Part shown: piece after piece, positions 1 through 40,664 of the stretch | Layout of the letters: each line of letters opens with the position of its first letter | How positions within the stretch are numbered: the stretch's first letter is position 1 | Origin: an uncultured Alphaproteobacteria bacterium | Lineage (GTDB): Bacteria > Pseudomonadota > Alphaproteobacteria > Rhizobiales > Xanthobacteraceae | Length of the DNA: 64,000 nt | Assembly: GCA_963708125.1 (NCBI GenBank) | Contig: OY970184.1 | Coordinates: 4,623,010-4,687,009, forward strand | Reading direction: 5' to 3' | The notes under the pieces: model-generated | Databases searched by the model: none | What the model was told of the DNA's origin: nothing | What the model saw: the letters and a program-made list of their open reading frames with translations, nothing else | Program-made: the position numbers and the translations under genes

Positions 1-483
1 GGCTGGAATTAGATGGCCGCTGCCGACCGAGTGGACCGACGACGTTCTGGACGAACGGCTGTTCGCGCGCAGCGGCATCAAGCCCGGCCGACGCCGTTAC
101 CGCGAACCGGATTGGGCGGCGCTTTCGCGCGAGCTCAAGCGGCCAGGTGTCAACCTGATGGTGCTGTGGGAAGAGTATCGGGCGAGCAATCCGACAGGCT
201 ACGCATATTCTCGTTTTTGTGATTTGTTCCGCGCGTTCGAACGTCGTTTGTCGCCGGTGATGCGCCAGCATCATGTCGCCGGCGACAAAGTGTTCGTCGA
301 CTACTCCGGCAAGAAGATCGAGATCGTCGACCCGAAGACGGGCGAGATACGCGACGCCGAGATATTCGTCGCCGTGGCGGGCGCATCGAACTACACGTTT
401 GCCAAAGCAACTTGGACACAAGCGCTGCCGGACTGGATCGAGGCGCATGTGGAGATGTTCCGATTTTTTCAAGGCGTGCCACG
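1..483 (+). pseudogene. IS21-family IstA transposase fragment (cut by the window edge on the left, broken at 483)
   Basis: nt 1-483 are the exact reverse complement of 9839-10321: ORF pairs 13..222/10100..10309 and 150..482/9840..10172 are identical and their coordinates sum to 10322. The peptide MVLWEEYRASNPTGY...HVEMFRFFQGVPR is an internal stretch of the 8920..10635 IstA ORF. Identity stops at 483|484. Confidence 0.9.
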
Positions 484-700
484 CGCCAGCACCCCGGTCG
501 GACCCCTTACGCGCTACATCATTGCCGATCTCTACCAGAAACGCGCACGTCAGAGCGGACTGCCACTCCAGGGTACGTCCTCCTACTGCCTGCGCCATTC
601 ATTTGCGATGCGGCTGCTCGATCGCGGTGTCGGCGTAAAGGTGATCGGTGATCTGCTGGGTCATCATACCCTGGAAAGCACTTGCGTCTATCTTCGGCTA
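484..700 (+). pseudogene. C-terminal fragment of a RitA-like tyrosine recombinase (lineage RIT-X), split by IS630; the last 22 codons resume at 3463..3528
   Basis: The translation ...SYCLRHSFAMRLLDRGVGVKVIGDLLGHHTLESTCVYLRL carries the box II RH and the C-terminal GH..Y motifs. Removing 701-3462 joins VYLRL to EAGALREVALPLPTVREEDAA*, which resembles the C-termini of the other RitA-like genes here. Its stop overlaps the next recombinase start as ATGA at 3525-3528. Confidence 0.75.
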
Positions 701-2364: not shown

Positions 2365-3163
2365 TAGTTCCCGCATGCAAGCAGCGAAGTCGATGGCGGT
2401 GCGGCTCTCCGTGACTTTGACCTTGCGCCAGGGGCGATGCACGTCGAGGAAGATAAACAGATTGGCGGTGCCATTACGCTTGTACTCGCAATCGTAGCGC
2501 TCCAGCTGTCCGGGCTTGGCCTTGATCTGCTGACGAACCTCGCCGATGAGCTGGGTCGGGCTTTCGTCGAAACAGACCACCGGGCGCTTCCGATCAGGCT
2601 CTTCAGCATAGAGGTCGAGCACATCTTCCATGCGGGCGACGAATTCACCGTCGACCTGCGGGATGCACCACATGTCCTTGCGCCAGGGCTTGAGCTGGTT
2701 TTCCTGCAGGCGCCGGCGCACGGTCTCGCGGGAGATGTTGTCGTGCTCGGTGAGCCTGACCATTTCATCGGCGAGGAGTTCCAGCGTCCAACGGGCGCGG
2801 CCTTTGGGCGGGCTCGAACAGGCAGTTGCGACCAGCAGGGCCTCCTCTTTGCCGGAGAGCTTGCGGTCGGCACCAGGGCGGGGCTCCTCGCTGAGCGCCG
2901 CCTCCAGGTTGCCGATTACGAAGCGGCGCTTGGTCCGATAGACGGTCGAGCCGCCTACCCCGACGCTCCTCGCGATCTCCTCGTCACTGGCGCCGGCATC
3001 TGCCGCCAGCAGAATCTGCGCGCGCTTGAGCCTGCGTGCCCCATGTTTGCCGCCGCTCAGCAGCGCACTCAGTTGTTCGTGTTCGGATTGGCTCAGTTCG
3101 ACCCGATAGCGTACATTCATCCGTGCCTCCTCGCGTTGAGGCCCGGACGAACAGTTGAGTCGG

Positions 3164-3421
3164 ATGGCCGGAGTGAGTCGCCCTGCAAAAAGCTTCACGC
3201 CCAAGCAGGGCCAGTATCTCGCGTTTATCCACCTCTACACACGCCTGCACCGCCGGCCACCAGCCGAAACCGACATGCAGCAATATTTCCGCGTCAGCCC
3301 ACCCTCGGTTCACCAGATGGTGTTGACGCTTGAGCGGGCAGGCTTCATCCGGAGACAACCACGGACACCCCGCAGCATCGAAGTGCTCGTTGATCCCAAA
3401 CAGCTGCCCGAGTTACTTTGA
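3164..3421 (+). CDS. small winged-helix (LexA/MarR-like) DNA-binding protein encoded inside the outer IS630, divergent from its transposase
   Basis: 85-aa ORF from the ATG at 3164: MAGVSRPAKSFTPKQGQYLAFIHLYTRLHRRPPAETDMQQYFRVSPPSVHQMVLTLERAGFIRRQPRTPRSIEVLV. The pattern resembles a LexA N-terminal or MarR wHTH. It lies between the transposase start (3120) and the right IR (3437-3460). Confidence 0.55.
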   Translation: MAGVSRPAKSFTPKQGQYLAFIHLYTRLHRRPPAETDMQQYFRVSPPSVHQMVLTLERAGFIRRQPRTPRSIEVLVDPKQLPELL

Positions 3422-3524
3422 ATACGGGTCTAACCGGTCAAAACCTGTGTGCAGAGGTACTAGAGGCCGGAGCCCTGCGGGAGGTCGCGCTTCCTCTGCC
3501 GACAGTGCGCGAGGAGGACGCAGC

Positions 3525-4300
3525 ATGAGTGCGACATTAGCGGGCAGCGCGTTAAACCAGGTTGCCGCCCGATATTTGCGGAGACAACGCTCACTCGGGC
3601 GCGCCTATGTTCATGAGGAGCATGTAATAGACGCTTTAGGTCTGTTTCTTGAGAAGCACAGCTGCGCCGATCTCAATCGAGCCATCTTCGAGGCATGGTG
3701 CGCATCACAAGCTCATCTCTCTGCAAACACGCGACGCAATCGCCAGCGTATCGTGCGCAACTTTTGCCTCTATCGGCAGCGCACCGAGCCAACTTGCTTC
3801 GTTCCGGATATCAACCGCCTCCCACATCGGAAGCCGTATGCACCCCCGGTCATCTTCGGGGCGGCTGAGGTCGCCAGGATGTTGGCCGTAGCCGATCGTT
3901 TGGCGCCGACTTCAACCTCACCGCTTCGCCAGCGGTGATGCGACTTGCCGTGGTGCTACTCTACACGGCAGGGCTCCGTCGGGGCGAACTGTTGCGTCTC
4001 ACACTGGCCGATGTCGATCCCCGCGACGGCATTTTGCAGATTCGTGCGTCGAAGTTCCACAAGTCGCGGATCGTCCCGTTGTCGCCAGACGCCTGTCGGG
4101 AGCTGAGGCTGTATCTCCGGAAGCGACTTCGGCCACCTCTGAGCTGTTCAGCGGAAGCCCCCTTGCTTTGCAACAACATGACGCGTGTGCGTGGCTACAC
4201 AGGTAACGGCCTGCGGCAGGGAATCCAACAGCTATTCCGAGCAGCCAATGTTTGCGGCACTGACGGACGAACCCCGCGGGTCCATGATTTTCGTCACTAT
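3525..4300 (+). pseudogene. RitB-like tyrosine recombinase (RIT-X), 5' part; frameshift near 3936; interrupted after HDFRH by RIT copy 1
   Basis: MSATLAGSALNQVAARYLRRQRSLGRAY... continues in the +1 frame as MRLAVVLLYTAGLRRGELLRLTLADVD...KFHKSRIVPL...TPRVHDFRH. The codons CAT GAT TTT CGT CAC occupy 4283-4297. The 3' part resumes at 7725..7934. Confidence 0.8.
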
Positions 4301-4326
4301 GTAGCCCTCCGGACTATGTCGCGTAC
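4295..4326. repeat. RIT terminal inverted repeat, RitC-proximal end
   Basis: CACTATGTAGCCCTCCGGACTATGTCGCGTAC. The reverse complement of 7668-7699 is CACTATGAAGCCCTCCGGACTATGTCGCGTAC, 31/32 identical. The 11-mer GACTATGTCGC occurs at 4312-4322 and inverted at 4393-4403. Confidence 0.9.
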
Positions 4327-4412
4327 TCTGACGAACTCTCCAATTTTGGCTGTAAATATCGGATCGCCGGGCATAGAGGTTCAGTCGATTAGGCGACATA
4401 GTCTTGTCCAGG

Positions 4413-5411
4413 CTATAAGCCGTCCAGAAAGTTCAGCAGCTGATCTCCCGGGCGATAACGACTCGGCGAGCCGTGCGGCGATGAGATTTTGGCGAGGGCC
4501 TGCTCCTTCATCGCGAGTGTTGCTTCCAAATAGATCTGCGTCGTTTCTAGCGATTCATGACCGAGCCACATGGCGATGACCGCGCGGTCGACACCCGCTT
4601 GTAACAATTCCAGCGCCATCGTGTGTCGAAGCAGATGGACGGTGACCCGCTTTCCCTTCAAATAAGGGCACACTCTGGCAGCGTTCGCAGAATGTTTTCT
4701 CAACAGGTGCTGCACGCCATGAACGCTCAAGCGCTCGCCCTTTGCATTTGGAAACAACAGGCGTTTACTGCCTCTTTGCGGCTCAGATAGCCAAGCTCTC
4801 AGTACGGCAACAGTTGGCTTGGCCAATGGCGTACAGCGCTCCTTCCGACCCTTGCCTATGACCCGCACATGAGCGCCGCTTTCAAGCATGAGGTCGTCGC
4901 GTTTGGCGCCGGTGATTTCCGACAAGCGCAGACCCGTTTGGACCGCCGTCAGGATAAAAGCATGATCACGCCTCCCGAACCAGGTGCGACGATCGAGAGC
5001 AGCGAGCAAAGCATCGACTTCTTGACGTATAAGGAAACGGACGAGCGTGCGTGGGAAGCATTTGCTAGGGATAGCAAGCACACGCTGGATCTGTGCCGAG
5101 TGAGTTGGCAGTTCGAAAGCGGCGTAATGAAAGAATGAGTGGATAGCGGTCAGCCGCAGGTTGCAACTGCGCGCGCTCAGACCTTGATTCTTCTCGATCT
5201 GATCGAGAAACGCCACGACCAACGGGGCATCGATCTCTTCGAACCGCAGAGCTGAAGGTGGTTTATGCAACCGCTGCCGAGTGAACTTAAGGAACTGACG
5301 GAAGGTGTCGCGGTAGGAGCTGATGGTGTGCGGACTGACCTGGCGCTGCTGGATCAGACGCTGTGTGAAGAAGCGCTCCAGCAGGGGAGCGAGGCTGAGG
5401 AGGGTAGTCAT
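4413..5411 (-). CDS. tyrosine recombinase, RitC position (333 aa from MTTLLSLAPLLERFF)
   Basis: The full catalytic set is visible (...GLRLSEI..., HLLRHTMALELLQAGVD, WLGHESLETTQIYLE). The ATG at 5411 overlaps the upstream stop as ATGA (5408-5411). Confidence 0.85.
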   Translation of the reverse strand: MTTLLSLAPLLERFFTQRLIQQRQVSPHTISSYRDTFRQFLKFTRQRLHKPPSALRFEEIDAPLVVAFLDQIEKNQGLSARSCNLRLTAIHSFFHYAAFELPTHSAQIQRVLAIPSKCFPRTLVRFLIRQEVDALLAALDRRTWFGRRDHAFILTAVQTGLRLSEITGAKRDDLMLESGAHVRVIGKGRKERCTPLAKPTVAVLRAWLSEPQRGSKRLLFPNAKGERLSVHGVQHLLRKHSANAARVCPYLKGKRVTVHLLRHTMALELLQAGVDRAVIAMWLGHESLETTQIYLEATLAMKEQALAKISSPHGSPSRYRPGDQLLNFLDGL

Positions 5412-6361
5412 GGCCGCCTCTCCCAGCGCTGTTCCAGCCGCGACCTCGCCTCGTGCATCAACTCGGGCAGCGCGCTCAAATACCAAAAGGTATCGCTCCA
5501 GTGGACGTGCCCGAGGTAGGCAGACAGGATCGGCAAGCGCCGCTCGGCATTCTCCCCGGCGCGGTACCACCTCAATAATGTCTTCGAAGCGAACCCATGC
5601 CGCATATCGTGCAGTCGCGGCCCGCGACTATCGGACGGGCCGCGCAGCCCGATTTGACGAGATAAGGCGTAAAACGTTCGGCGAATGTCGCCGCCATCCA
5701 AGCGGTTGCCCCAGCCGGATACGAATAGATAGGAAGAGACCGGCCGGTTCGCCCACGCCTGCTCGCGTCGCGCCATGTAGTCGGCGAGCACTCTGCGGGT
5801 TGAAGCGTGCAACGGAACCAGGCGAGACTTGCCGAACTTAGCTCCCCGAATGGTCAGCACGCCGGATCGAAGGTCAACATCTTGCAGTTCGAGGTTTTGC
5901 GCCTCGCTGACACGCAGCCCCGTGACGCTTAGCAACCCGAACAGGCAATGGTAGGTCCAGGGCCGCAAGCCATTCTTGGCAGGAAGCTTCAGAGCGGCGC
6001 GCAGCAACTCTTTGATCTGTTTGTCGGAGTACATGTAGGGTTGCGCGCGCTTGGGCCGATACGGCAACAGCCCTGCGGCTGGAATTTGCGTACGCGGATC
6101 CATAGCGCTTCGGTGCCGCGCGAAACTTCGCACGCAGCTCAAACGTCGCGCCCACTCGCTCGGCTGCACGTTCGACGGTTGTTTGGCCCAGGCGAGCGCC
6201 AAAGATTGGGTGATGTATGAGGCGCGGCGCTGCTCCATGAACGTGACGAAGGCGAGCAAGCTCTTGCCGGCAGCCTCCAGCTTGTATCCCAAGCTGCGTC
6301 GCATGATCAGATACTCTTGAGCGGCTTGTCGGAGTGTGTTCATCGCACACCTCCCGGTCAC
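5408..6361 (-). CDS. tyrosine recombinase, RitB position (about 311-317 aa)
   Basis: Motifs GLRVSEAQNL, KFGKSRLVPL, LHDMRHGFASKTLLRWY and YLGHVHWSDTFWYL are present. The start is either the GTG at 6361 (GTGA overlap with the upstream stop) or the ATG at 6343. Confidence 0.85.
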   Translation of the reverse strand: MTGRCAMNTLRQAAQEYLIMRRSLGYKLEAAGKSLLAFVTFMEQRRASYITQSLALAWAKQPSNVQPSEWARRLSCVRSFARHRSAMDPRTQIPAAGLLPYRPKRAQPYMYSDKQIKELLRAALKLPAKNGLRPWTYHCLFGLLSVTGLRVSEAQNLELQDVDLRSGVLTIRGAKFGKSRLVPLHASTRRVLADYMARREQAWANRPVSSYLFVSGWGNRLDGGDIRRTFYALSRQIGLRGPSDSRGPRLHDMRHGFASKTLLRWYRAGENAERRLPILSAYLGHVHWSDTFWYLSALPELMHEARSRLEQRWERRP

Positions 6362-7572
6362 GGCAAGGCGAGTGTGCGCAGCGCATTGATGTCAACCTTG
6401 GTGTAGATCTTGGTGGTCTCAGGGCTACGATGCCCCAATAACTCGCCGATCTCGCTCAGCGAGGCGCCATGGCGCAACATCTCGGTAGCCAGTCCATGGC
6501 GAAACTGATGGGCTCCAGTGGTGGGCGCATCAATGCCGGCACGCAAGAGTGCGTGGCGAACAATCGTTCCGACGGCACTGGGACCTAAAAAGCCACGGAT
6601 GGGAGCTTTAACACGCAAAAATACGCGACGACTGGTGCTGCGTGGTCGTCCTTGTTGTAAGTATGCGGCGATTGCCTCGCCGACATCTTTGGGCAAGGGC
6701 AGTTGGACCAGCCGCCCCCCTTTGCCGTGAACGCTCAGGGAACCATCCTTCCAGTCGATATCATCGAGTTCGAGAAACACCACTTCGGTGGCACGCAAAC
6801 CCAACCGTGCAAGCAGCAACAAAATCGCATAGTCGCGTTGTCCGATCGCGGTATGTCGATTGATTTGCGTCAACATGGCGGACTTGATCCGCTGCAATCG
6901 CCCGAGGGATCGACGGCATCGACCAGTTCGCCACAACGGGCACGGCTGCAGCCAGATCCAGCCGGACAAAACCGCGATAGCGCGTGTACTGGAGGAAGGA
7001 ACGCAACGCAGTGGTCAGGAGCTTGGCTGTCTTCAAATGCAGTCGTGGCGTTTGGCGCTGAACAAACCGCACCACGTCTCCGGCACACAATTGCGAGAGC
7101 CTGACAGGTGCGCTGCCAAAGCAATCCTTGAGGAACTCGCGAATAAACCGGACGTAGTTGACAATCGTCGCCGTCGCCAGGGCGCGTTCCTCGCGCAAAT
7201 ACCGCTCATATGCGCGGACGTGTTGTTCGATCGGGCTTGGTCGAAGCTGGCGTATCTCGACCGGGATTAAATTGCCATCACGTAGAAAATCGAGGAGTTG
7301 CTTCAACGCCGCAGCATCACCCTCGCAAATCCGCTGCTGCCGCGCACGATATCGAAGGTACTGGTCGAAATGTCGAGATGAGACGCTGTGCAAACGCACC
7401 GACTTCTTTGCAAGCCATCGGCTAAAACCGACAGCGATCCGAATCCGCCTCCGCAGCGAACACGGCGCGTATCCCTGCCGCTCGCCCACTTCGAAAACGA
7501 GACAATGTAGGGCGCCAGAGGTCCCTCCGGCGCGCGTAACAGAACCACCTGATCGTTGACGATAAACTTCAT
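6358..7572 (-). pseudogene. tyrosine recombinase, RitA position, read in three frames (two frameshifts)
   Basis: Frame 1 gives MKFIVNDQVVLLRAPEGPLAPYIVSF (from 7572). Frame 2 gives ...GERQGYAPCSLRRRIRIAVGFSRWL...VANWSMPSIPRAIAADQ. Frame 3 gives ...SAMLTQINRHTAIGQRDYAILLLLARLGLRATEV...AHQFRHGLATEML...LLGHRSPETTKIYTKVD. The shifts lie near 7480-7500 and 6880-6900. Confidence 0.75.
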
Positions 7573-7667
7573 GGTCGACCCCTTCCCCTGCACAGGTTGA
7601 GAGAAGAGGCGAGACTATGTCGCGACCCACAGACGATTTGCGCCAAGAAACTGAGCCGTAATCGAAA

Positions 7668-7699
7668 GTACGCGACATAGTCCGGAGGGCTTCATAGTG
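7668..7699. repeat. RIT terminal inverted repeat, RitA-proximal end
   Basis: GTACGCGACATAGTCCGGAGGGCTTCATAGTG. The 11-mer GACTATGTCGC occurs at 7613-7623 and inverted at 7672-7682. Confidence 0.9.
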
Positions 7700-7703
7700 A
7701 CGA

Positions 7704-7723
7704 CTATGTCGCCGGCGACATAG
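7704..7723. repeat. 20-bp perfect palindrome CTATGTCGCCGGCGACATAG just outside the RitA-proximal IR of copy 1
   Basis: Read directly from the sequence. It is built from the same CTATGTCGC motif as the RIT sub-terminal 11-mers and is absent next to copy 2. Confidence 0.9.
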
Positions 7724-7724
7724 G

Positions 7725-7934
7725 CGCCACAGCTTCGCAGTCGGATCGCTGTTGCGATGGTACCAGCAAGGCGCGGACGTCCAATCCAATCTGCCGAAGC
7801 TTGCGATGTACATGGGGCACGTCTCAATTGTTTCGACCGCCTACTACCTGCGCTGGATTCCGCAGCTCGCAGCTGCAGCTAGCTATCGGCTCGAGACGCA
7901 CTTCGGCCACCTCATCACCGGAGGTGCCGTATGA
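7725..7934 (+). pseudogene. RitB-like recombinase (RIT-X), 3' part
   Basis: CGC CAC AGC TTC GCA GTC... translates to RHSFAVGSLLRWYQQGADVQSNLPKLAMYMGHVSIVSTAYYLRWIPQL, the expected continuation after the RH box. Its stop overlaps the next gene start as ATGA at 7931-7934. Confidence 0.8.
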
Positions 7935-8700
7935 GATCCCAGAGACCTAATGAACTCGGCAAGGGCATCGAGCGGTTCTTCCGTGAGTATCTGCCGACGC
8001 TCCGCGGTACCAGCCGACACACGATCCGCAATTACCGGGACGCCATCGTTCTGTTCTTGCGTTTTACTTCGTCGCAAACAGCGAAAGCTATCGAGGATCT
8101 CGACCTCGCCGATTTTACCGCCAACCGGGTGCAGGACTTTTTGGCCTTTCTGGAGGCCGAGCGTCACAATGGCGTCGCCACCCGCAATGCGCGGCTGGCG
8201 GCGCTGCATACCTTCGCTCGCTTTCTTGTTCTTGCGACCGAACAGCCTGCCCATCTAGCCGAGCTGCAGCGCGTGCTAGGCCTACCGTTCAAACGCGACG
8301 CGCGTAGCAAGCCGATCGAATACCTTGAGCCGCAGGAAGTCGAAGCGCTGCTCAAATCGATCGATCGCTCCACACTAGCTAGGGGGTAACCGTGACTATG
8401 CTTTGTTCGCACTGATGCTCAACACGGGTGCCCGCGTTCAGGAGATACTCGACTTGCGGCTGTGCGACGTCCGCACCGATCCTCCTCATCGAGTCCGGCT
8501 GCACGGCAAGGGCGGCAAAACGCGATTGTGTCCAATTTGGCCGCAAACCGCACGGCTTCTGCAAGAACTCTCGAACAGTCCTGCTCATTCACGAGGCAGA
8601 GAATCTCCGCTGTTCGTGAACTGCCAGGGCAACAAGTTGACCCGCTTTGGCGTTCGTTACCTGCTCAAGAGGCACATCACCGCCGGAGCGAGAGCAACCC
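7931..8700 (+). pseudogene. RitC-like tyrosine recombinase (RIT-X); frameshift near 8380-8390; 3' end removed at about 8700 by IS21
   Basis: MRSQRPNELGKGIERFFREYLPTLRGTSRHTIRNYRDAI... continues in another frame as RDYALFALMLNTGARVQEILDLRLCDV...LHGKGGKTRLCPIW...FGVRYLLKRH. The box II region is missing. Confidence 0.75.
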
Positions 8701-8704
8701 GCAC

Positions 8705-8923
8705 GCGCAGCCGTGCGTTTCTGGCGCGGGCCTCGAAGCGCTTTTGCCGCCGCAGTGTCGCTTCGTGTTCGAGCAGGAGGCCGAGCCATTCGGCATGTTG
8801 CAGGTCGCTTGTGTCTGCGGCCAGTTCGAGTTGGTGGAAGCCCTTGGCCATGCCGTGAAGACCGAGGTCGCGCAACATAGTGAGGGTCGGATGCATCAAC
8901 ATGAGATGTTCTGTCCTTTTCAA
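8705..8923 (-). pseudogene. istB: IstB helper ATPase, N-terminal fragment only
   Basis: MKRTEHLMLMHPTLTMLRDLGLHGMAKGFHQLE...EWLGLLLEHEATLRRQKRFEARARNARLR. Homology is then lost, and no Walker motifs are present. Confidence 0.75.
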
Positions 8924-12066: not shown

Positions 12067-13391
12067 TCATGAGGTGCACGGCGGCGGCCCGAGGTGCACG
12101 CGGAGAAGTCGGAGCACGCCGTAGCCTCCGTAAATACGCTCATGGGAGAACTGCCGCGCTCCAGTGTTGTGCACTTTGTGCCGACGCTTGAGGAAGTGTT
12201 TGGTGCGTTCATAGACGTAATACTCAACGGCCCGATAGGCCTGCAACCGTGTGCCATAGCTGAAGTACGCCGACCAGCCACGCAAGACGCTGTTGAGTTG
12301 ATCGCGTACTTGAGGCCATGGCCCCACTTCGTGCGGCACCAGCAGTTCGCCGATCTTTGTCTTGATCCGCTGCACACTCTTCTTGGACGGGCTTGCGCCT
12401 AGATACCAATGGCCATTTTTCCGGTACCAATGCGGCCCGAAGCTATAACCAAGGAAGTCGAAGCTCTCGCGCCGGACATCCTTCACCGAGGTTTTCGCCT
12501 CGTTGAGCGTCAGCCCGAGTTTTGTCATCACCGCTTTCGTCCACGCCAGGGCCTCATGCGCGTGGCCGCGGCTGAGGATGACGAAGTCGTCGGCGTATGA
12601 GACGATGTGAGCGCGAAAGGCTTCGCCGCGTCTGGTCAGACGCCAATGCTTCAGGAACCGGTTCATGTAGATGACGGAGAGCAGCGGGCTTGCAACACCG
12701 CCTTGCGGTGTACCGCGCTTGCTATTCTTGCCACCACTCATGTGCCGCTTCCCGTTGCCGTCCCGCTCCTCGACCGGCGCTTGCAGCCATAGCTTGATCG
12801 GCCACAGCACATGCCGGTCGACGATGCGTCGGGCCACCGATTTAAGGAGGTCCGAATGCGGGATCGTGTCGAAATATTTAGACAAATCGGCGTCGACCAC
12901 GTCGGTATAGCCCCGGCAGATCAGCCGGTGCGTTTCCTTGATCGCATCGACCGCGCTGCGGCGCGGACGATAGCCATAAGCATTGTCCTCAAAGTCCGCT
13001 TCGAAGATCGGTTCCAGCACGAGTTTGGCGGCAGTCTGAATGACGCGACAGCGAATCGTGGGAATGCCGAGCGCGCGCTCGCCTCCCCCGGGCTTCGGGA
13101 TCATCACCCGCCGCACCGGATCGGGCCGGTACGTCTTCGAAACGAGGTCCTCGCGCAGACCCGCTACCATGCCTCCACGCCCGACGCCTCGATCTGCTCA
13201 AAGGTCACCCCGTCAACACCCGGCGCACCCGCTTTGGCGCGGGCCAGCGCATAGGCATGGCGCAGAATGTCCTCGCGGCAGATCTTGTCGTAGAGCAAAT
13301 AAAAGCGGTAAGCGGGCTCCGCCTTCGCCTTACGATAAAGCTTTCTCTGAAGGTTCCTGATCTTTTCAGGTGTTTCGAGGCTCATCGCCAA
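12067..13391 (-). pseudogene. group II intron reverse transcriptase/maturase, one frameshift near 13165
   Basis: MAMSLETPEKIRNLQRKLYRKAKAEP...[18 protein letters not shown] shifts frame into (L)[36 protein letters not shown]...[10 protein letters not shown]...LGYSF.... The RT motifs including YADD and a maturase (X) domain are visible. No endonuclease domain is apparent. Confidence 0.85.
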
Positions 13392-21988: not shown

Positions 21989-22141
21989 TATGAAGAGACT
22001 TCCATGGCTCGCTCAAAAGCGGTCGCGTCGTGTAACGAGATGTCCCTGCAGCCACGTCTCGCTGGCCTCTTCGTCGATCTTGTCGAGCCGACGCCGCACC
22101 GCATCCTCGCAGACCACCTCCGCTGGCGAGCGCAGGCTCTT

Positions 22142-34179: not shown

Positions 34180-35273
34180 ATGTTCATGAAGCCCGTCATT
34201 TTACGGCCAGCGCCGCAAGCATGGCTGTCGTCCAGCATTATATCGCCTTACCAAGATCGCTATGTCGCGCGTTTGCGGCAAGATCGATACGCGCACAACG
34301 TGATACGCGTGTATCTTGCAAGCGTCGCCCATTTCGCACGCTGGCTCAGCAAGCAGGATATTTGTCTGCCATCGCTCAGCGAGGCGGTATTGGATCGTTT
34401 CCTCAACGAGCATCTGCCCATCTGCAGTTGTCCTGAGCCAGTACGTCGAACACAGTATGAACTGAGGACAGCGGTCCGCCACCTCCTGAGACTGCTTGAG
34501 ACCGAGGGAGCCATTCGGTCCGCCGACGAGCGGGATGAGCGCAGCACGGAGTTGGCAGCGTTCGATGCCTACATGCGTGATGTCGGGGGCCTGGCGGAGA
34601 CCACACGACGGCAGCGTCGACGGATTGTCGGCGATTTCCTCGCTCATGTATTCGGCACGGACTGTGTCATCGTCGCGAAGATCGACACCGCAGACGTGAG
34701 GCGCTTCGTTCTGGGTGAAGGTCGTGCCTGGGGCGCCGGCGCGGTGCGCGTCGCAGGCAATTCGGTGGGCTGCTATCTGAAGTATCGTCAGATGTGCGGC
34801 GACGACATCGCCAAGCTTCTGCAGGCCATACCGCTGGCGGCACACTGGCGCTTGGCGCCGCTGCCCGAGGTATTGTCACCGGCCGAGATTGACCTGCTTT
34901 TGGCATCGTTCAGTGCAACCCTGCCATCCGGTCGGCGTGCCTATGCCATGGTCAGGTGTGTCACGGACCTTGGCCTCCGCTGCGCGGAAGTGGTCAAGCT
35001 GCGCATCGATGATATCGATTGGCGGAACGGAACCGTCAGGATCGCTCGCTCCAAAACGCATTTCACGGCCTGCCTGCCGCTGCCTAAGCCGACCGGTGAC
35101 GCAATCGCCGACTACCTCGGTACGAGCGGCCGAAGACAGCAAGCCGGGCGATTTTTGTTCGTCATGTTGCGCCCTATGACGTTCCCATACTGCCGGGGGT
35201 GGCCAAGCAGGCCGTCATTGCCGCATTTCGCCGCTGCGGCTGGGATCGTTCCGACCCGCACGTCCTGCGCCAC
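34180..35273 (+). pseudogene. RitA-like tyrosine recombinase (lineage RIT-Z); frameshift near 35165; cut after HVLRH by RIT copy 2
   Basis: MFMKPVILRPAPQAWL...GLRCAEVVKLRIDDIDWRNGTVRIARSKTH... continues in another frame as VAPYDVPILPGVAKQAVIAAFRRCGWDRSDPHVLRH. The codons CAC GTC CTG CGC CAC occupy 35259-35273. Confidence 0.75.
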
Positions 35274-35388
35274 TATGTAGCCCTCCGGACTATGTCGCGT
35301 ACTCTGACGAACTCTCCAATTTTGGCTGTAAATATCGGATCGCCGGGCATAGAGGTTCAGTCGATTAGGCGACATAGTCTTGTCCAGG

Positions 35389-36387
35389 CTATAAGCCGTC
35401 CAGAAAGTTCAGCAGCTGATCTCCCGGGCGATAACGACTCGGCGAGCCGTGCGGCGATGAGATTTTGGCGAGGGCCTGCTCCTTCATCGCGAGTGTTGCT
35501 TCCAAATAGATCTGCGTCGTCTCTAGCGATTCATGACCGAGCCACATGGCGATGACCGCGCGGTCGACACCCGCTTGTAACAATTCCAGCGCCATCGTGT
35601 GTCGAAGCAGATGGACGGTGACCCGCTTTCCCTTCAAATAAGGGCACACTCTGGCAGCGTTCGCAGAATGTTTTCTCAACAGGTGCTGCACGCCATGAAC
35701 GCTCAAGCGCTCGCCCTTTGCATTTGGAAACAACAGGCGTTTACTGCCTCTTTGCGGCTCAGATAGCCAAGCTCTCAGTACGGCAACAGTTGGCTTGGCC
35801 AATGGCGTACAGCGCTCCTTCCGACCCTTGCCTATGACCCGCACATGAGCGCCGCTTTCAAGCATGAGGTCGTCGCGTTTGGCGCCGGTGATTTCCGACA
35901 AGCGCAGACCCGTTTGGACCGCCGTCAGGATAAAAGCATGATCACGCCTCCCGAACCAGGTGCGACGATCGAGAGCAGCGAGCAAAGCATCGACTTCTTG
36001 ACGTATAAGGAAACGGACGAGCGTGCGTGGGAAGCATTTGCTAGGGATAGCAAGCACACGCTGGATCTGTGCCGAGTGAGTTGGCAGTTCGAAAGCGGCG
36101 TAATGAAAGAATGAGTGGATAGCGGTCAGCCGCAGGTTGCAACTGCGCGCGCTCAGACCTTGATTCTTCTCGATCTGATCGAGAAACGCCACGACCAACG
36201 GGGCATCGATCTCTTCGAACCGCAGAGCTGAAGGTGGTTTATGCAACCGCTGCCGAGTGAACTTAAGGAACTGACGGAAGGTGTCGCGGTAGGAGCTGAT
36301 GGTGTGCGGACTGACCTGGCGCTGCTGGATCAGACGCTGTGTGAAGAAGCGCTCCAGCAGGGGAGCGAGGCTGAGGAGGGTAGTCAT
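35389..36387 (-). CDS. tyrosine recombinase, RitC position (copy 2)
   Basis: Its translation is identical to 4413..5411. Confidence 0.85.
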   Translation of the reverse strand: MTTLLSLAPLLERFFTQRLIQQRQVSPHTISSYRDTFRQFLKFTRQRLHKPPSALRFEEIDAPLVVAFLDQIEKNQGLSARSCNLRLTAIHSFFHYAAFELPTHSAQIQRVLAIPSKCFPRTLVRFLIRQEVDALLAALDRRTWFGRRDHAFILTAVQTGLRLSEITGAKRDDLMLESGAHVRVIGKGRKERCTPLAKPTVAVLRAWLSEPQRGSKRLLFPNAKGERLSVHGVQHLLRKHSANAARVCPYLKGKRVTVHLLRHTMALELLQAGVDRAVIAMWLGHESLETTQIYLEATLAMKEQALAKISSPHGSPSRYRPGDQLLNFLDGL

Positions 36388-37337
36388 GGCCGCCTCTCCC
36401 AGCGCTGTTCCAGCCGCGACCTCGCCTCGTGCATCAACTCGGGCAGCGCGCTCAAATACCAAAAGGTATCGCTCCAGTGGACGTGCCCGAGGTAGGCAGA
36501 CAGGATCGGCAAGCGCCGCTCGGCATTCTCCCCGGCGCGGTACCACCTCAATAATGTCTTCGAAGCGAACCCATGCCGCATATCGTGCAGTCGCGGCCCG
36601 CGACTATCGGACGGGCCGCGCAGCCCGATTTGACGAGATAAGGCGTAAAACGTTCGGCGAATGTCGCCGCCATCCAAGCGGTTGCCCCAGCCGGATACGA
36701 ATAGATAGGAAGAGACCGGCCGGTTCGCCCACGCCTGCTCGCGTCGCGCCATGTAGTCGGCGAGCACTCTGCGGGTTGAAGCGTGCAACGGAACCAGGCG
36801 AGACTTGCCGAACTTAGCTCCCCGAATGGTCAGCACGCCGGATCGAAGGTCAACATCTTGCAGTTCGAGGTTTTGCGCCTCGCTGACACGCAGCCCCGTG
36901 ACGCTTAGCAACCCGAACAGGCAATGGTAGGTCCAGGGCCGCAAGCCATTCTTGGCAGGAAGCTTCAGAGCGGCGCGCAGCAACTCTTTGATCTGTTTGT
37001 CGGAGTACATGTAGGGTTGCGCGCGCTTGGGCCGATACGGCAACAGCCCTGCGGCTGGAATTTGCGTACGCGGATCCATAGCGCTTCGGTGCCGCGCGAA
37101 ACTTCGCACGCAGCTCAAACGTCGCGCCCACTCGCTCGGCTGCACGTTCGACGGTTGTTTGGCCCAGGCGAGCGCCAAAGATTGGGTGATGTATGAGGCG
37201 CGGCGCTGCTCCATGAACGTGACGAAGGCGAGCAAGCTCTTGCCGGCAGCCTCCAGCTTGTATCCCAAGCTGCGTCGCATGATCAGATACTCTTGAGCGG
37301 CTTGTCGGAGTGTGTTCATCGCACACCTCCCGGTCAC
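36384..37337 (-). CDS. tyrosine recombinase, RitB position (copy 2)
   Basis: Its translation is identical to 5408..6361. Confidence 0.85.
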   Translation of the reverse strand: MTGRCAMNTLRQAAQEYLIMRRSLGYKLEAAGKSLLAFVTFMEQRRASYITQSLALAWAKQPSNVQPSEWARRLSCVRSFARHRSAMDPRTQIPAAGLLPYRPKRAQPYMYSDKQIKELLRAALKLPAKNGLRPWTYHCLFGLLSVTGLRVSEAQNLELQDVDLRSGVLTIRGAKFGKSRLVPLHASTRRVLADYMARREQAWANRPVSSYLFVSGWGNRLDGGDIRRTFYALSRQIGLRGPSDSRGPRLHDMRHGFASKTLLRWYRAGENAERRLPILSAYLGHVHWSDTFWYLSALPELMHEARSRLEQRWERRP

Positions 37338-38548
37338 GGCAAGGCGAGTGTGCGCAGCGCATTGATGTCAACCTTGGTGTAGATCTTGGTGGTCTCAGGG
37401 CTACGATGCCCCAATAACTCGCCGATCTCGCTCAGCGAGGCGCCATGGCGCAACATCTCGGTAGCCAGTCCATGGCGAAACTGATGGGCTCCAGTGGTGG
37501 GCGCATCAATGCCGGCACGCAAGAGTGCGTGGCGAACAATCGTTCCGACGGCACTGGGACCTAAAAAGCCACGGATGGGAGCTTTAACACGCAAAAATAC
37601 GCGACGACTGGTGCTGCGTGGTCGTCCTTGTTGTAAGTATGCGGCGATTGCCTCGCCGACATCTTTGGGCAAGGGCAGTTGGACCAGCCGCCCCCCTTTG
37701 CCGTGAACGCTCAGGGAACCATCCTTCCAGTCGATATCATCGAGTTCGAGAAACACCACTTCGCTGGCACGCAAACCCAACCGTGCAAGCAGCAACAAAA
37801 TCGCATAGTCGCGTTGTCCGATCGCGGTATGTCGATTGATTTGCGTCAACATGGCGGACTTGATCCGCTGCAATCGCCCGAGGGATCGACGGCATCGACC
37901 AGTTCGCCACAACGGGCACGGCTGCAGCCAGATCCAGCCGGACAAAACCGCGATAGCGCGTGTACTGGAGGAAGGAACGCAACGCAGTGGTCAGGAGCTT
38001 GGCTGTCTTCAAATGCAGTCGTGGCGTTTGGCGCTGAACAAACCGCACCACGTCTCCGGCACACAATTGCGAGAGCCTGACAGGTGCGCTGCCAAAGCAA
38101 TCCTTGAGGAACTCGCGAATAAACCGGACGTAGTTGACAATCGTCGCCGTCGCCAGGGCGCGTTCCTCGCGCAAATACCGCTCATATGCGCGGACGTGTT
38201 GTTCGATCGGGCTTGGTCGAAGCTGGCGTATCTCGACCGGGATTAAATTGCCATCACGTAGAAAATCGAGGAGTTGCTTCAACGCCGCAGCATCACCCTC
38301 GCAAATCCGCTGCTGCCGCGCACGATATCGAAGGTACTGGTCGAAATGTCGAGATGAGACGCTGTGCAAACGCACCGACTTCTTTGCAAGCCATCGGCTA
38401 AAACCGACAGCGATCCGAATCCGCCTCCGCAGCGAACACGGCGCGTATCCCTGCCGCTCGCCCACTTCGAAAACGAGACAATGTAGGGCGCCAGAGGTCC
38501 CTCCGGCGCGCGTAACAGAACCACCTGATCGTTGACGATAAACTTCAT
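37334..38548 (-). pseudogene. tyrosine recombinase, RitA position (copy 2), same two frameshifts as copy 1
   Basis: The three-frame layout is the same as 6358..7572. There is one amino-acid difference (LRASEV versus LRATEV). Confidence 0.75.
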
Positions 38549-38672
38549 GGTCGACCCCTTCCCCTGCACAGGTTGAGAGAAGAGGCGAGACTATGTCGCG
38601 ACCCACAGACGATTTGCGCCAAGAAACTGAGCCGTAATCGAAAGTACGCGACATAGTCCGGAGGGCTTCATA

Positions 38673-39429
38673 GTGGCGTAAGGCGTGTAGACATGGGGCG
38701 CGCCGACCGTCATCCTTGCAACCGATTCCGGTGGTCTCGAGCAGCCTTTTAAATGCATGATCGACATTGTGCTTCCTCACCTGTGTTCCGTCTCGGTTTG
38801 CAAAGAAGGCGGACTCCATCCCTTCCGGCACTGGGCGGTCCGAACGTCGTTCGGCATAAGCCCGCAGGGCATCGGCGAGTTTGCAAGCAACGGGCACGAG
38901 ACAACTCTTGTAGAACTTAGTGTTCCGCACCGTCAGCACTGCGTTCGCAAGGTCCACATCCCTCATGGTTAGATGCAGCGCCTCGCTGGTTCGCAGTCCA
39001 GCTCCGTACAGGATCAGGAGCAGGGGTACGGAAAGTATCGCTATCGAGCCGGACGGCGTGCTTGCGGCTGGTATTGACGGCCTCAAACAGGTGCCGCAGT
39101 TCCTCGCGGGAGTAGATATAAGGTTGCGTCGATGGCGGCTCTCTCGGTTCTTCGTCTGCCGCCGGCAGGGGCGACCGGGTGGCATAACCGCGGCTGATCG
39201 CATACCGGTAAAATCCGGCGAGCGCGCCGTACTTGCCGGCGCGCCATCGGGTGAGTGGACCGGTTCCAGCAAGGAATTGGCGGACCTCTTTCTCCGTCAC
39301 CGCATCGCAGCACACGTGTTCGGGGACGCTTCTACAAAATTGGTACAATGCGCGTGCGGTGGTAATGAATCGCGCACCGTGGGCCCGCCGCCACGCCACA
39401 TAGTGGTCGATCGCGCCGCGGAGAATCAT
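38673..39429 (-). pseudogene. RitB-like tyrosine recombinase (lineage RIT-Y); frameshift near 39090; cut after HALRH by RIT copy 2
   Basis: MILRGAIDHYVAWRRAHGARFITTARALYQF... continues in another frame as LLLILYGAGLRTSEALHLTMRDVD...KFYKSCLVPV...APCLHALRH. The codons occupy 38687-38673 on the minus strand. The ATG overlaps the upstream stop as ATGA at 39426-39429. Confidence 0.75.
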
Positions 39430-40664
39430 AACAGCCCCTCCAGATCGATTTCGGCAACTTCGCGAAGAGCATTGAGCTGCACCTTGGCGTAGACCGAGGT
39501 GGCTGCGACGCTGCGATGGCCGAGATAGTCTCCAACCGCCTTCATCGACAAGCCCTGATCCAGGGGATGCTGGGCGGTCGCGTGACGCAACGCATGTGGA
39601 CCACGACGTTTTCCGGTGATCCCAATTCGATCAAGGCGCGTACAGACGATGCCCTTTATCACTTCTCGACTGAGAGGCTTGATCGGAGCCTTCAACGTCA
39701 AGAACAACCTGCGTTCTGGTTGCGCGGGACGAACTTCGCGCAGATAGCGGAGGATCGTCTGCCCGACACCTCGTGAGAGCGGGTAGAGATGCGTAAGCCC
39801 GGGCTTGGGGCAACGCACCCGCAACATCTCCTGCTCCCAATCCAGATCGCCGAGCTGAAGGCCGCTGACCTCACCGGCGCGTAGGCCGTAGGTAGTCAGC
39901 AGCATCAGGATCGCGCGGGCACGAATGTCAAAAGGACTGTCGCCCTCAGTGGTGGCGAGCAGGCGGATGATCTCGTCCTGATTTAATCCTTTCGGAATGG
40001 TTCCGCCGAGATAGCGCCGCGGCGGCATGATCCCGTCTGCCAGACCTGGCTTGCACCAGCTCTGCTGTTCGGCAAACCGGAAGAATCTACGAAGTTGCTG
40101 CGCATAAAGATGCATCGTTGATCGACAGTAGCCACGCGCGTGATAGCGTGCGATGACCTGATCGATCATGGTGATCCCGACCGAGGCTAGATCGACACCT
40201 GTCTCGTCCAGCCAGACGAAGAAGCGATCGACTGTTCGGCAACAGCCGACGACCGTGGCATCGGATAATCCGCGCTCTCCCAACATATGCGCCGCAAAGG
40301 CTGTGACCTCGCGTGTGTGGGCGTGACCTGCGACCTCGGGTTCATCAATCCAGCCTAGAAAGCGCAACCATCGCTCAGCGTGGTTGAAGAACCGTCGACG
40401 CGCGCGAGGTCGTGATTTACGGTCCCCCGGCAAAGACCATCGCCTATACCAGGCCTCAATCTTGCACAGGTTCAAGTCGTCATCGCCGTCCTGCAAATTG
40501 AGAATGCGCACGAGGTTCAGTTGATGCGAAGCAATATTGCACAACGTCTCGGTCTGGATGCCGATTTGCTCGCAACGAGCGAGATAGCGGAGTCTCTCCT
40601 TAAGCAAAGGCGCAGAGCGATATCGCGCGATCGCAGACGGCCGGGTGAAAAGACATTCGAGCAT
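39426..40664 (-). CDS. RitA-like tyrosine recombinase (lineage RIT-Y, 412 aa, intact)
   Basis: ...ILMLLTTYGLRAGEVSGLQLGDLDW...GPHALRHATAQHPLDQG...YLGHRSVAATSVYAKVQLNALREV. Confidence 0.8.
   Translation of the reverse strand: MLECLFTRPSAIARYRSAPLLKERLRYLARCEQIGIQTETLCNIASHQLNLVRILNLQDGDDDLNLCKIEAWYRRWSLPGDRKSRPRARRRFFNHAERWLRFLGWIDEPEVAGHAHTREVTAFAAHMLGERGLSDATVVGCCRTVDRFFVWLDETGVDLASVGITMIDQVIARYHARGYCRSTMHLYAQQLRRFFRFAEQQSWCKPGLADGIMPPRRYLGGTIPKGLNQDEIIRLLATTEGDSPFDIRARAILMLLTTYGLRAGEVSGLQLGDLDWEQEMLRVRCPKPGLTHLYPLSRGVGQTILRYLREVRPAQPERRLFLTLKAPIKPLSREVIKGIVCTRLDRIGITGKRRGPHALRHATAQHPLDQGLSMKAVGDYLGHRSVAATSVYAKVQLNALREVAEIDLEGLL

Follow-up and report, generated by a model that had tools for sequence, protein, structure and literature searches.

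A RIT element whose probable attachment site is the DNA encoding the box II Arg-His of tyrosine recombinases

Two element copies and the genes that flank them

The window (the whole 64,000-nt stretch of DNA analysed here) holds two copies of a 3,405-bp element in the same orientation, with two mismatches between them, at 4545 and 6788 (Table 1). CAC is the first triplet common to both, as the earlier note had recorded, and their identity stops exactly at CAC...GTG. The two 32-bp arms of the terminal inverted repeat differ by one mismatch, and the repeat occurs four times in the window against zero expected occurrences. Between the repeats, ritA, ritB and ritC lie adjacent on the minus strand, ritB and ritC with a 4-nt overlap (ATGA); only these three recombinase genes were found there, and neither a small accessory protein of the TnpC/Srap type of Tn554 and SEs nor a Tfp partner. 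In this gene order, in inverted repeats of roughly 30 bp and in a unit of about 3.5 kb, the element is a RIT: published members are ritA-ritB-ritC elements of about 3.4-3.5 kb with roughly 30-bp terminal inverted repeats and several identical copies per genome (Van Houdt et al. 2009, 2012; PMC3414803). RIT proteins measure about 400 aa (RitA), 310-325 aa (RitB) and 330-340 aa (RitC), and RitA carries a pair of core-binding domains, RitC one additional helix at its C terminus (PMC8138268). Judged by sequence homology, the three proteins belong to the RitA, RitB and RitC subfamilies of the published pHG1 RIT; the nearest published relatives are the RITs of pHG1 and the EbN1 plasmid, at 72-77% protein identity (PMC3414803), and the three RitA segments match pHG1 RitA at 54-76%. 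HxxRH and a downstream GH motif, with no stop within 50 aa, are present in all three rit reading frames, although RitA is out of frame in both copies. The ritA frameshifts, at about 6872-6876 and 7478-7488, are common to both copies, so that, unless these are assembly errors, both copies must have been mobilised in trans.

Three of the four element ends adjoin box II at its HxxRH codons, each in a different recombinase gene, and the junction sequences are as the earlier note gave them (a slash marks the junction): CAT GAT TTT CGT CAC/TATGTAGCCC in RitB-X (HDFRH), CAC GTC CTG CGC CAC/TATG in RitA-Z (HVLRH, 35259-35273) and, on the minus strand, CAC GCC TTA CGC CAC/TATGAAGCCC in RitB-Y (HALRH, 38687-38673). 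The HVLRH codons stand at the junction as had been claimed, but a frameshift, at a T5 run near 35140, has to be allowed for to bring them into frame with the rest of RitA-Z. That the three targets are distinct recombinases is borne out by the orthologue of RitB-X in a trio, the PF00589 match of RitA-Z and the position of RitB-Y beside RitA-Y, which it overlaps by 4 nt. RitB-X belongs to a degraded host element with close counterparts in an intact trio of Bradyrhizobium retamae (L136): nucleotide identity is 88.5% for the RitA-X fragment (to the RitA end, L136 3304-3521), 86% for the 5' part of RitB-X (L136 3524-4367; one frameshift near 3935-3960) and 90% on the side of its 3' remainder (L136 4362-5338).

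Copy 2 has on each side the 5' part of a different gene, and both genes read into the element, RitB-Y into its RitA-side end; the 3' parts of RitA-Z and RitB-Y are both absent from the 64,000-nt window. Such paired 5' parts, which also flank several plasmid copies, and the CGY CAC that precedes all four element ends in the window would be compatible with an origin that involves no targeting, in which CGYCAC and the gene pieces belong to the element, or homologous or illegitimate recombination joined paralogues at a conserved motif.

Table 1. Features in the window (1-64,000), with their positions, strands and the basis on which they were assigned
Feature	Position	Strand	Basis or remark
IS21-like copy	1..483		truncates the RitA-X fragment on the left
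RitA-X 3' fragment, part of degraded host element RIT-X	482..699	+	PF00589 C-terminal match
RitB-X 5' part	3546..4297	+	tblastn, translation; ends on HDFRH codons 4283-4297
Left target hexamer h1, CGT CAC (Arg-His)	4292..4297	+	L136/L137 empty site
Copy 1	4295..7699		
Terminal inverted repeat, RitC side	4295..4326	+	terminal 11-mer CACTATGTAGC and subterminal direct 11-mer GACTATGTCGC
3,427 bp of inserted DNA, by comparison with the empty site	4298..7724		alignment with uninterrupted trio L136
c site, inverted internal copy of the 11-mer	4393..4403	-	
ritC, 332 aa	4413..5411	-	77% identity to RitC of the pHG1 element
ritB, 311 aa	5408..6343	-	72% identity to pHG1 RitB
ritA	6358..7573	-	two frameshifts; three tblastn segments in different frames against pHG1 RitA
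c' site, internal copy of the 11-mer	7613..7623	+	
Terminal inverted repeat, RitA side	7668..7699	-	
Palindromic module	7697..7730	+	GTGACG (inverted hexamer), A CTATGTC GCCGGC GACATAG G, CGCCAC (h3, right hexamer)
RitB-X 3' remainder, RHSFAVGSLLRWYQQG...GGAV*	7725..7934	+	translation
RitC-X remnant	7931..8710	+	frameshifted; ends before its own box II
RitA-Z 5' part	34180..35273	+	RitA-like, PF00589 match; ends on HVLRH codons
Copy 2	35271..38675		no palindromic module at either end
RitB-Y 5' part	38673..39429	-	RitB-like; ends on HALRH codons; one frameshift
RitA-Y, intact, upstream partner of RitB-Y	39426..40664	-	PF00589 and SAM-like domain

Empty site and palindromic module

At the right junction of copy 1, a 28-nt palindrome (7700-7727), in which the element's 11-mer GACTATGTCGC occurs twice in inverted orientation, lies between the inverted repeat and RitB-X, which resumes beyond it exactly at the Arg-His codons. 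The hexamer CGYCAC therefore stands on both sides of copy 1, at 4292-4297 and 7725-7730, and the palindromic module together with the RitA-side repeat forms an intact site of the junction type. Uninterrupted orthologues of RitB-X, for which the earlier note had advised a search, exist in Bradyrhizobium: one with 92% identity across the junction lies in the intact A-B-C trio of B. retamae. The empty site in L136 and L137 reads CAT GAT TTT CGT CAC AGC, with CGTCAC present once, and the two flanking BLAST segments in the L136 alignment overlap by exactly these 6 bp. Since the uninterrupted orthologues read CGT CAC AGC, 3,427 bp have been inserted and the hexamer duplicated; the right-hand hexamer of the window is CGCCAC, with the Arg codon CGC versus CGT in the empty site. 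By this alignment, a short core, single in the empty site, recurs in near-identical form at either junction, as is characteristic of a site-specific integrative element. Orthologous empty sites that differ only by the missing 3,427 bp already contradict an origin without targeting. The palindromic module and the hexamer duplication, both absent from the earlier note, define the architecture of the attachment site.

Target specificity on plasmids and in metagenomes

Relatives of the element (RitB 63-72% identical) on 11 plasmids provided 14 further junctions, all at MGN CAY: on pHG1 at HTLRH, HSLRH and HVLRH, on the EbN1 plasmid twice at HVIRH, on RPE67 at HTLRH in two different genes, and once each in FT54, M3C, KK10, AR07, NGR234, R. 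leguminosarum and Microvirga. The Arg codons at these junctions are CGT, CGC, CGG, CGA and AGG. The metagenome scan used the end pattern without its flank, so it is unbiased for the target, and gave matches on at least 120 contigs from soil, peat and sediment. Among the matches listed are 130 ends, 72 of which adjoin xxRH codons and 51 the palindrome; six are others and one is too short. PF00589 matched 26 of the 26 5' parts tested, the match of the first member ending at profile position 134 of 172, and 45 of the 51 palindrome ends among the matches listed continue as Arg-His codons and a recombinase 3' remainder, for example RHTTAMHLLQSGVD. The window (3), the plasmids (14) and the metagenomes (72) together give about 89 Arg-His junctions (the metagenome number among the matches listed). 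The insertion at box II Arg-His DNA that had been read from three genes is thus real, general and independently repeated, and the external plasmid and metagenome data exclude chance. The flanking gene pieces are also far too diverse to have been carried along with the element, as the 72 metagenome junctions have 66 distinct 5' flanks (among the matches listed) of RitA, RitB, RitC and non-RIT type, and the two halves of one gene surround one insertion in five cases (window copy 1, pHG1 copy 2, FT54, KK10 and NGR234). After the empty sites and these flanks, we give an origin without targeting almost no credence.

The independent insertions share a defined target sequence, CAY NNN NTN MGN CAY followed by (S/T)xA codons, and the termini of this clade read CAC/TATNTNCC. 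In a simple insertion, the 5' part of the target ends in MGN CAC and is followed by terminal repeat, genes and terminal repeat, and then by GTGNCK n CTATGTC N6 GACATAG n and the MGN CAY that opens the 3' part of the target. This 4+7+6+7+4 module was found at 51 metagenome ends (among the matches listed) and at seven plasmid ends in five plasmids; it forms a perfect or near-perfect hairpin, and its 22-nt palindromic core is always the side next to the 3' part of the target, in either orientation of the element. The RitA-side and RitC-side ends can each carry either kind of junction: RitA:RitC counts are 8:32 at Arg-His junctions and 5:24 at palindrome ends among the matches listed, and the junction type is independent of the element end. 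The element-side His codon is CAC in 72 of 72 metagenome junctions and the far-side codon CAT in 22 of 45 (among the matches listed), which assigns the third base of this codon to the element arm; the KK10 plasmid, where the element-side hexamer ends in CAT, is an exception. Mini-elements of 121-364 bp are inserted like full elements, which points to action in trans, and in sequence L006 (5613-5632) a solo palindrome has a 3' remainder on either side.

The targets comprise RitA-, RitB- and RitC-type genes, as expected from the claim that members of RIT-like trios are struck, but also non-RIT integrases, one type of which (..IDKRVSMHTLRH/SFATHLLE) was struck repeatedly. In the window, the plasmids and the metagenomes, no copy of this clade was found outside an Arg-His/recombinase context, palindrome ends aside; copies in unrelated flanks, which the earlier note had named as evidence against its reading, were thus not encountered. 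A looser specificity, roughly for MGNCAY anywhere, combined with survival or detection only of insertions in dispensable recombinase genes of mobile DNA, would fit the degeneracy of the hexamer, in which all six Arg codons and both His codons occur (among the matches listed), and the third codon positions of the targets, which hold almost no information. However, the 130 flank-blind ends among the matches listed include no Arg-His junction outside recombinase genes, although neutral sites (intergenic regions, other accessory genes) are abundant on plasmids and the loose motif is estimated to occur hundreds of times per genome, once per about 33 kb per strand, so that we regard loose specificity as very improbable. 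With the wobble positions uninformative, recognition by the recombinases would have to cope with a degenerate site of roughly 40 bp. The element's own rit genes contain matching hexamers and were never found struck among the copies surveyed. The suggestion that they escape by codon choice does not hold: the element's ritC reads CTT CGA CAC ACG at box II, relatives' own genes carry CGC CAC or AGG CAC, and CAT targets are struck. A second clade (RIT-X) sits at the Walker B codons of IS21 istB in the same arrangement.

Proposed mechanism and relation to known systems

Based on these junctions, we consider it likely that the element is a RIT-family site-specific integrative transposon whose attachment site is the DNA for the tyrosine-recombinase box II Arg-His. 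A junction site with two equivalent cores would recombine site-specifically with the target, crossing over within the Arg-His hexamer, in a hypothetical scheme in which (i) the Rit recombinases synapse both ends, most simply as an excised circle, placing the palindromic core between two terminal repeats in the joined-end junction; (ii) this junction would offer two equivalent core sites in mirror orientation, GACATAG n [MGNCA] C TATNTNCCC; (iii) conservative strand exchange between one core and the target would insert the element, use of the other core giving the opposite orientation, with the exchange confined to 7 bp or fewer, the last of them the second base of the His codon; (iv) mismatches within this region would be tolerated, so that an Arg codon can carry over from the previous site; (v) the second core, intact after integration, could recombine with a further Arg-His box, leaving both ends on 5' gene parts, as in copy 2, and a solo palindrome between 3' parts. 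The solo palindrome of L006 is the product that the two-core scheme predicts as reciprocal. Where the strands are cut, in which order they are exchanged and what each of the three proteins does are deduced here from sequence comparison.

The same target could be reached by another chemistry, without a double-stranded circle, through a hairpin-ended or single-strand intermediate or by copy-out, like the route proposed for strand-biased circularising elements and Tn554, with the module as a by-product. Neither a circular junction nor an excision product nor transposition has been recorded for any RIT, and a mobilome study in which RIT DNA was protected from exonuclease yielded no circle-spanning reads and suggested hairpins (PMC5737581). 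The module can itself form a hairpin, and SEs and Tn554 bring along a 6-bp donor flank (PMC10214605), comparable to the non-target Arg codon at 7725-7727. Against this, the arms of the module are the element motif CTATGTC/GACATAG of the subterminal-site 11-mer, whereas hairpin fill-in would copy the target or the extreme element end, neither of which the arms copy; moreover, the solo palindrome and the double-5' and double-palindrome configurations follow directly from two conservative cores. We therefore view a circle-free route as rather unlikely and prefer conservative integration from a two-core junction.

The palindrome beside ritC and 'complex combinations' of truncated RIT genes on the same plasmids were already noted (PMC3414803), and in a 2023 comparison the target specificity, empty site and movement of RITs all stand as 'not tested' (PMC10214605). 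We found no description of a RIT target site, attachment-site structure or insertion mechanism, although Ricker et al. 2013 (Plasmid 70:226) may hold one; that work aside, the Arg-His codon target, the hexamer duplication, the palindromic module within the mobile unit and the miniature derivatives are new here. RITs are widespread, yet their mobility has never been reproduced, and this first defined target site, with the predicted junction sequence and the natural mini-elements, makes a mobility assay feasible. Recombinases that recognise DNA encoding the active site of their own superfamily while tolerating wobble variation have an unusual specificity, which bears on the reading of degenerate sites and on the engineering of programmable integrases. 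For annotation, truncated 'integrase' ORFs that end in ...RH followed by Y(L/V/M)P(F/L)..TMS are element junctions rather than genes.

Each insertion strips the catalytic tyrosine from the target gene and brings in three new recombinase genes, which may explain the pile-up of such elements on few plasmids and gives a cause for the nested, truncated recombinase genes on pHG1, the EbN1 plasmid and pNGR234a. We lean towards regarding the RIT family as hyperparasites of mobile elements, each clade having as its attachment site the conserved catalytic-motif codons of a gene from another mobile element: box II Arg-His of tyrosine recombinases in one clade and Walker B Leu-Asp of the IS21 helper ATPase IstB in the other, both with the hexamer on both sides, a palindromic two-core junction and insertion in either orientation. 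If so, the recombinase-targeting clade would snowball, as each insertion supplies three new targets, and this would explain the recombinase-gene 'graveyards' on pHG1 (32 recombinase genes), EbN1 plasmid 2 (17) and pNGR234a (10).

Inteins and group I/II introns with homing endonucleases likewise target the DNA for the most conserved catalytic motif of a protein family, which guarantees recognisable sites across many hosts. They splice out, leave the host gene functional and rely on DNA breaks or reverse splicing, whereas the RIT inactivates its target and apparently moves by conservative site-specific recombination. The 'res hunters' Tn5053/Tn402 and the IS1111-type elements that enter integron attC use DDE or DEDD transposases at non-coding recombination sites. 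They resemble the RIT in a target that lies mainly on mobile DNA, combining a host-safe site with a ride on transmissible replicons, but do not target catalytic-motif codons of their own enzyme superfamily. Tn554, SEs and GInts also have several recombinase genes together and insert site-specifically without classical target duplication, and the carried-over donor flank of about 6 bp in Tn554 and SEs (PMC10214605) would correspond to the non-target Arg codon at the right junction of the window; they differ in their TnpC/Srap or Tfp partners in place of an A-B-C trio, in their targets, and in that no two-core palindromic junction has been described for them. Finally, Rit proteins are 'simple' Xer-like recombinases (PMC8138268), and a dif-like 11-6-11 layout can be read into the 28-nt module; in contrast to dif, with which it has no sequence similarity, the module travels with the element and is surrounded by inverted Arg-His hexamers.

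The element and its junctions in the window

The 3,405-bp element is present twice in the window, in the same orientation; the window comparison finds two positions that differ, and the identity stops precisely at CAC on the left and at GTG on the right. Its 32-bp terminal inverted repeat occurs four times, with none expected, and each copy carries three tyrosine-recombinase genes on the minus strand in the order ritA, ritB, ritC. The gene order, the homology, the size and the inverted repeats place it in the RIT (recombinase-in-trio) family; identity to the RIT of the Cupriavidus necator megaplasmid pHG1 is 54-76% for RitA (three segments), 72% for RitB and 77% for RitC. Exact-sequence look-ups with the element's RitB and RitC returned no record, megablast of the element against plasmids gave no match, and a scan of genome contigs with the inverted-repeat pattern matched only the stored locus L001, which lacks the element body. 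The 11-mer GACTATGTCGC is found at each element end as a degenerate terminal, a subterminal direct and an internal inverted copy; its other occurrences in the window are confined to the adjoining palindrome and, with one mismatch, a single further position. Both copies share two frameshifts in ritA, which point either to movement with help in trans or to systematic assembly errors.

The earlier note had placed three junctions on the box II HxxRH codons of other tyrosine-recombinase genes, and all three are correct: CAT GAT TTT CGT CAC in RitB-X, CAC GTC CTG CGC CAC in RitA-Z and, on the minus strand, CAC GCC TTA CGC CAC in RitB-Y, each followed directly by the element's TATG. The genes hit are, as also claimed, all recombinases of differing kind (RitB, RitA and RitB type, respectively). 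HVLRH shares a reading frame with the remainder of RitA-Z only once a frameshift at a T5 run is allowed for, and RitB-X, RitC-X and RitB-Y are frameshifted too; long genes in other parts of the window being intact, we read these four as decaying pseudogenes. At the fourth junction, on the right of copy 1, the inverted repeat is followed by ACGACTATGTCGCCGGCGACATAGGCGC, a 28-nt palindrome of two inverted 11-mers, past which RitB-X continues with CAC AGC TTC, reading HSFAV. Copy 2 is without a palindrome and has 5' gene parts on both flanks, reading into the element. The RitB-Y frame runs through the terminal repeat into out-of-frame ritA, giving a chimeric ORF of 511 codons; fusions of this RitB-Y/ritA type will be reported by gene callers as integrases ending ..RH-Y(E/V)ALRTMS...

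A query in which the 5' and 3' parts of RitB-X were joined with a single Arg-His retrieved the uninterrupted orthologues that the earlier note had proposed to look for: they are 325 aa long, with 92% identity over 97% of the query, for example in Bradyrhizobium retamae, where the A-B-C trio is intact on contig L136. The empty site reads CAT/CAC GAT TTT CGT CAC AGC TTC in L136 and likewise in another contig, L137. The two segments of L136 that align with the window overlap by exactly the hexamer CGTCAC. Relative to the empty site the window is thus 3,427 bases longer and carries the hexamer twice, the right-hand copy having CGC in place of CGT.

Coordinates of the features discussed in the text
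Feature	Sequence	Positions
Element, copies 1 and 2	window	4295-7699; 35271-38675
ritA frameshifts (both copies)	window	6872-6876; 7478-7488
11-mer, adjoining palindrome	window	7702-7725
11-mer, one mismatch	window	52001-52011
Extra bases relative to empty site	window	4298-7724
Aligned segments, L136 with window	L136/window	3524-4367/3464-4297; 4362-5338/7725-8710
Chimeric ORF, RitB-Y into ritA	window	37737-39272 (minus)
RIT-X remnants	window	482-699; 3464-4297; 7725-8710
RIT-X loci	L136	2251-5688
RIT-X loci	L138-L148	
483-nt inverted repeat, istA-like	window	1-483; 9839-10321
IS630-family transposase genes	window	1117-2265; 2314-3204 (minus)
Group II intron gene	window	12067-13170
IS110-type copies	window	13825-14736; 15476-16462
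Polysaccharide-synthesis genes	window	17235-30126
Inverted-repeat arms, pHG1	L002	15547-18665; 22022-25140
Same arms	pHG1	128214-131332; 134689-137807
Solo palindrome, EbN1 plasmid 2	L006	5613-5632
Mini-element	L054	972-1091
Mini-element	L067	1276-1614
Mini-element	L090	951-1289
Mini-element	L129	32-370
Mini-element	L112	3464-3826
IS91-family element	L011	2019-4648
IS91-family element	L015	2025-4648
Related IS91-family end	L001	415-520
Variant terminal triplets	L014	1335; 8026

Flanks of related elements on plasmids and in metagenomes

The closest plasmid relatives (tblastn with RitB as query) are found on pHG1 and on plasmid 2 of Aromatoleum aromaticum EbN1, for which "complex combinations" of truncated RIT genes have already been noted (PMC3414803). 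A survey of all definable element ends on 11 plasmids gave 14 Arg-His junctions: HTLRH, HSLRH and HVLRH on pHG1; HVIRH twice, in paralogous genes, on EbN1 plasmid 2; HTLRH twice, in different genes, in Burkholderia RPE67; HTLRH also in Paraburkholderia FT54, R. leguminosarum and Cupriavidus KK10 (there with CGG CAT); HTWRH in Marinobacter M3C; HVLRH in Mesorhizobium AR07 and in Microvirga; and HIFRH on pNGR234a. The Arg codons are CGT, CGC, CGG, CGA and AGG, and the targets comprise RitC, RitB and RitA types as well as a non-RIT integrase type (..IDKRVSMHTLRH/SFATHLLE). The 28-nt palindrome, bracketed by RTG and CAC, adjoins an end in pHG1 (two ends), FT54, KK10 and pNGR234a, and past each of these a recombinase 3' remainder starts at the His codon. 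A RIT of pHG1 lies between the arms of a perfect 3,119-nt inverted repeat. Another RIT supplies both arms, each comprising RitA', RitB' and RitC' as far as the HTLRH of RitC', and the composite has two identical outer ends; an intact copy of this outer RIT' was not found within the first 153 kb of pHG1.

Metagenome contigs were scanned with the pattern TATNWNNCNNNCCNGACTATGTCGNGTA from inside the terminal repeat, leaving the flank unspecified, which yielded at least 130 ends on at least 120 contigs. Tabulated in this way, the Arg-His context extends beyond the window: among the matches listed, 72 of 130 ends lie at an in-frame ..xxRH, with 66 distinct flanks, 51 adjoin the 28-nt palindromic module (layout 4+7+6+7+4 nt), six have other flanks, including module variants and one HIFHH, and one flank is too short to classify. 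On the far side of the palindrome, Arg-His and a recognisable remainder follow at 45 of the 51 listed ends (e.g. RHTTAMHLLQSGVD, RHSFATHLLE.. and RHAFAVHMLENGTD). All 26 diverse 5' parts tested matched PF00589 (Pfam); for the first of them, the one printed, the match stops at profile position 134 of 172. Which end is involved does not determine the type of junction, the ratio of RitA-side to RitC-side ends among the matches listed being 8:32 for Arg-His junctions and 5:24 for palindromes.

At the metagenome ends listed, 31% of the element-side hexamers have AGG or AGA as their Arg codon, and box II of RitB and RitC in the elements themselves usually encodes its Arg with one of these two codons as well. 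Both codons are expected to be rare among Arg codons in G+C-rich bacteria.

Other RIT lineages and neighbouring mobile elements

RIT-X, which was hit in the window, is of a different RIT clade from the inserted element. It lies within the IS21 helper gene istB in L136 and nine further loci with both ends visible (10 of 15 fetched loci). The 5' part of istB terminates ..LLILD (CTS GAC), followed by the element's TTATGTGSAG; at the other end come GTCSAG, a palindrome and CTSGAC, after which istB continues with D-W-G to complete the Walker B motif. Both orientations are found, with 5' parts at both ends of locus L144 and palindromes at both ends of L145. RIT-X has the same hexamer-plus-palindrome architecture as the Arg-His clade, and the IS21-like pieces flanking its remnant in the window agree with insertion in istB. 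Published accounts of RITs located within a transposase gene and within the radC gene of an ICE (PMC3414803) are in keeping with this insertion habit.

The whole degraded RIT-X region is bracketed by a 483-nt perfect inverted repeat of IS21-like istA sequence, and IS630-family transposase genes lie between the RitA-X fragment and RitB-X. Beside polysaccharide-synthesis genes lies a mobile-element dump with a gene for a group II intron reverse transcriptase/maturase and an IS110-type element in two diverged tandem copies (80-92% identity).

A relative in P. fungorum (RitB 62% identity, termini AAC/TATGTCCCG) has no recombinase flank, and the Arg-His target is therefore clade-specific rather than universal to RITs. 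Variant terminal triplets, TAC or AAC instead of CAC, occur with non-recombinase flanks at loci L065, L093 and L112 (palindrome ends with AAC TAC) and at L014, which suggests shifts in target specificity within the family. A conserved flank in L001, AR07 and Microvirga was considered as a non-recombinase exception and ruled out, as it is an inserted IS91-family element with its own recombinase that separates the RIT end from the palindrome; palindromes and 3' remainders follow 2.6 kb away. In Mesorhizobium AR07 and Microvirga VF16 this element (Y2 transposase plus tyrosine recombinase) sits between the RitA-side RIT end and the module, with a related end at the same place in a MAG (L001), and the RIT end/module boundary may be its target site.

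Mini-elements of 121 to ~364 bp consist of the two ends only. In L054, L067, L090 and L112 one flank consists of Arg-His codons and the opposite flank of the palindromic module, as in full copies; in L129 the module adjoins each end. The mini-elements have the appearance of non-autonomous 'mini-RITs' mobilised in trans.

Insertion model and target recognition

In the model that we propose, the inserted unit comprises (i) a terminal repeat, the genes and the second terminal repeat, followed by (ii) an inverted hexamer and a 22-nt palindromic core. With the ends joined, the core would sit between both terminal repeats and create two mirror-image sites GACATAG n MGNCA C TATNTNCCC, the circle junction predicted for C. 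necator H16 (pHG1) or A. aromaticum EbN1 being ...GGGCATATA GTGCCT C CTATATCG(N4)CGATATAG G AGGCAC TATATGCCC.... Either core could recombine with a target Arg-His box, giving insertion in either orientation, and the palindrome would come to lie on the target's 3' side every time, in agreement with observation. Once integrated, the element would retain the second, unused core intact at one of its ends, and later recombination of that core with a further Arg-His box would leave 5' gene parts at both ends; such parts are present at both ends of window copy 2, the pHG1 copy with the 3,119-nt arms, the EbN1 and RPE67 copies, and L040, L105, L117 and L124. The reciprocal product would be a solo palindrome between two 3' remainders, and EbN1 plasmid 2 carries a palindrome without an element between RHTTAMHLLQAG and RHTFAVRRLVRW, both Arg-His-initiated recombinase 3' remainders. 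The joining of the ends as a circle and the roles of the three Rit proteins are what we infer.

A search of the targets for a DNA-level preference beyond the protein motif found only 0.1-0.3 bits at third positions; conservation is limited to first and second codon positions, and the recognised site is degenerate, shaped by the protein motif. The suggestion that the element spares itself through codon choice did not hold, as its RitC has CGA CAC ACG and relatives' own genes have CGC CAC or AGG CAC. Genes of the own type (RHTMAM..) are absent from the targets hit at the metagenome ends listed. Aligning the first His of HxxRH with the CAT in the palindrome arm was dropped, the spacing being off by one codon.

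Our literature search found no description of a RIT target site; Ricker et al. 2013 lay outside its coverage, so an earlier description is possible. A 2023 table gives RIT target specificity as untested (PMC10214605), and a palindrome adjoining ritC, like the tangle of RIT arrays on the plasmids discussed here, has been mentioned before (PMC3414803). We rate as new a defined, unusual attachment site and a junction architecture for a known family. The Arg-His insertion habit is a strong candidate to explain why pHG1 (32), EbN1 plasmid 2 (17) and pNGR234a (10) top the list of plasmids ranked by recombinase-gene count.

Among the matches listed, all 72 element-side His codons are CAC, and CAT occurs past the palindrome at 22 ends and never in the hexamer between element end and palindrome; the third base of the His codon is therefore part of the element arm. 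The Arg codon at the window's right junction has a third base that differs from the target's own. Judged from these sequences, the exchanged region would span at most 7 bp, end at the second base of the His codon and tolerate mismatches. Such an exchange resembles that of Tn554 and SE elements, in which 6 bp are carried over (PMC10214605).
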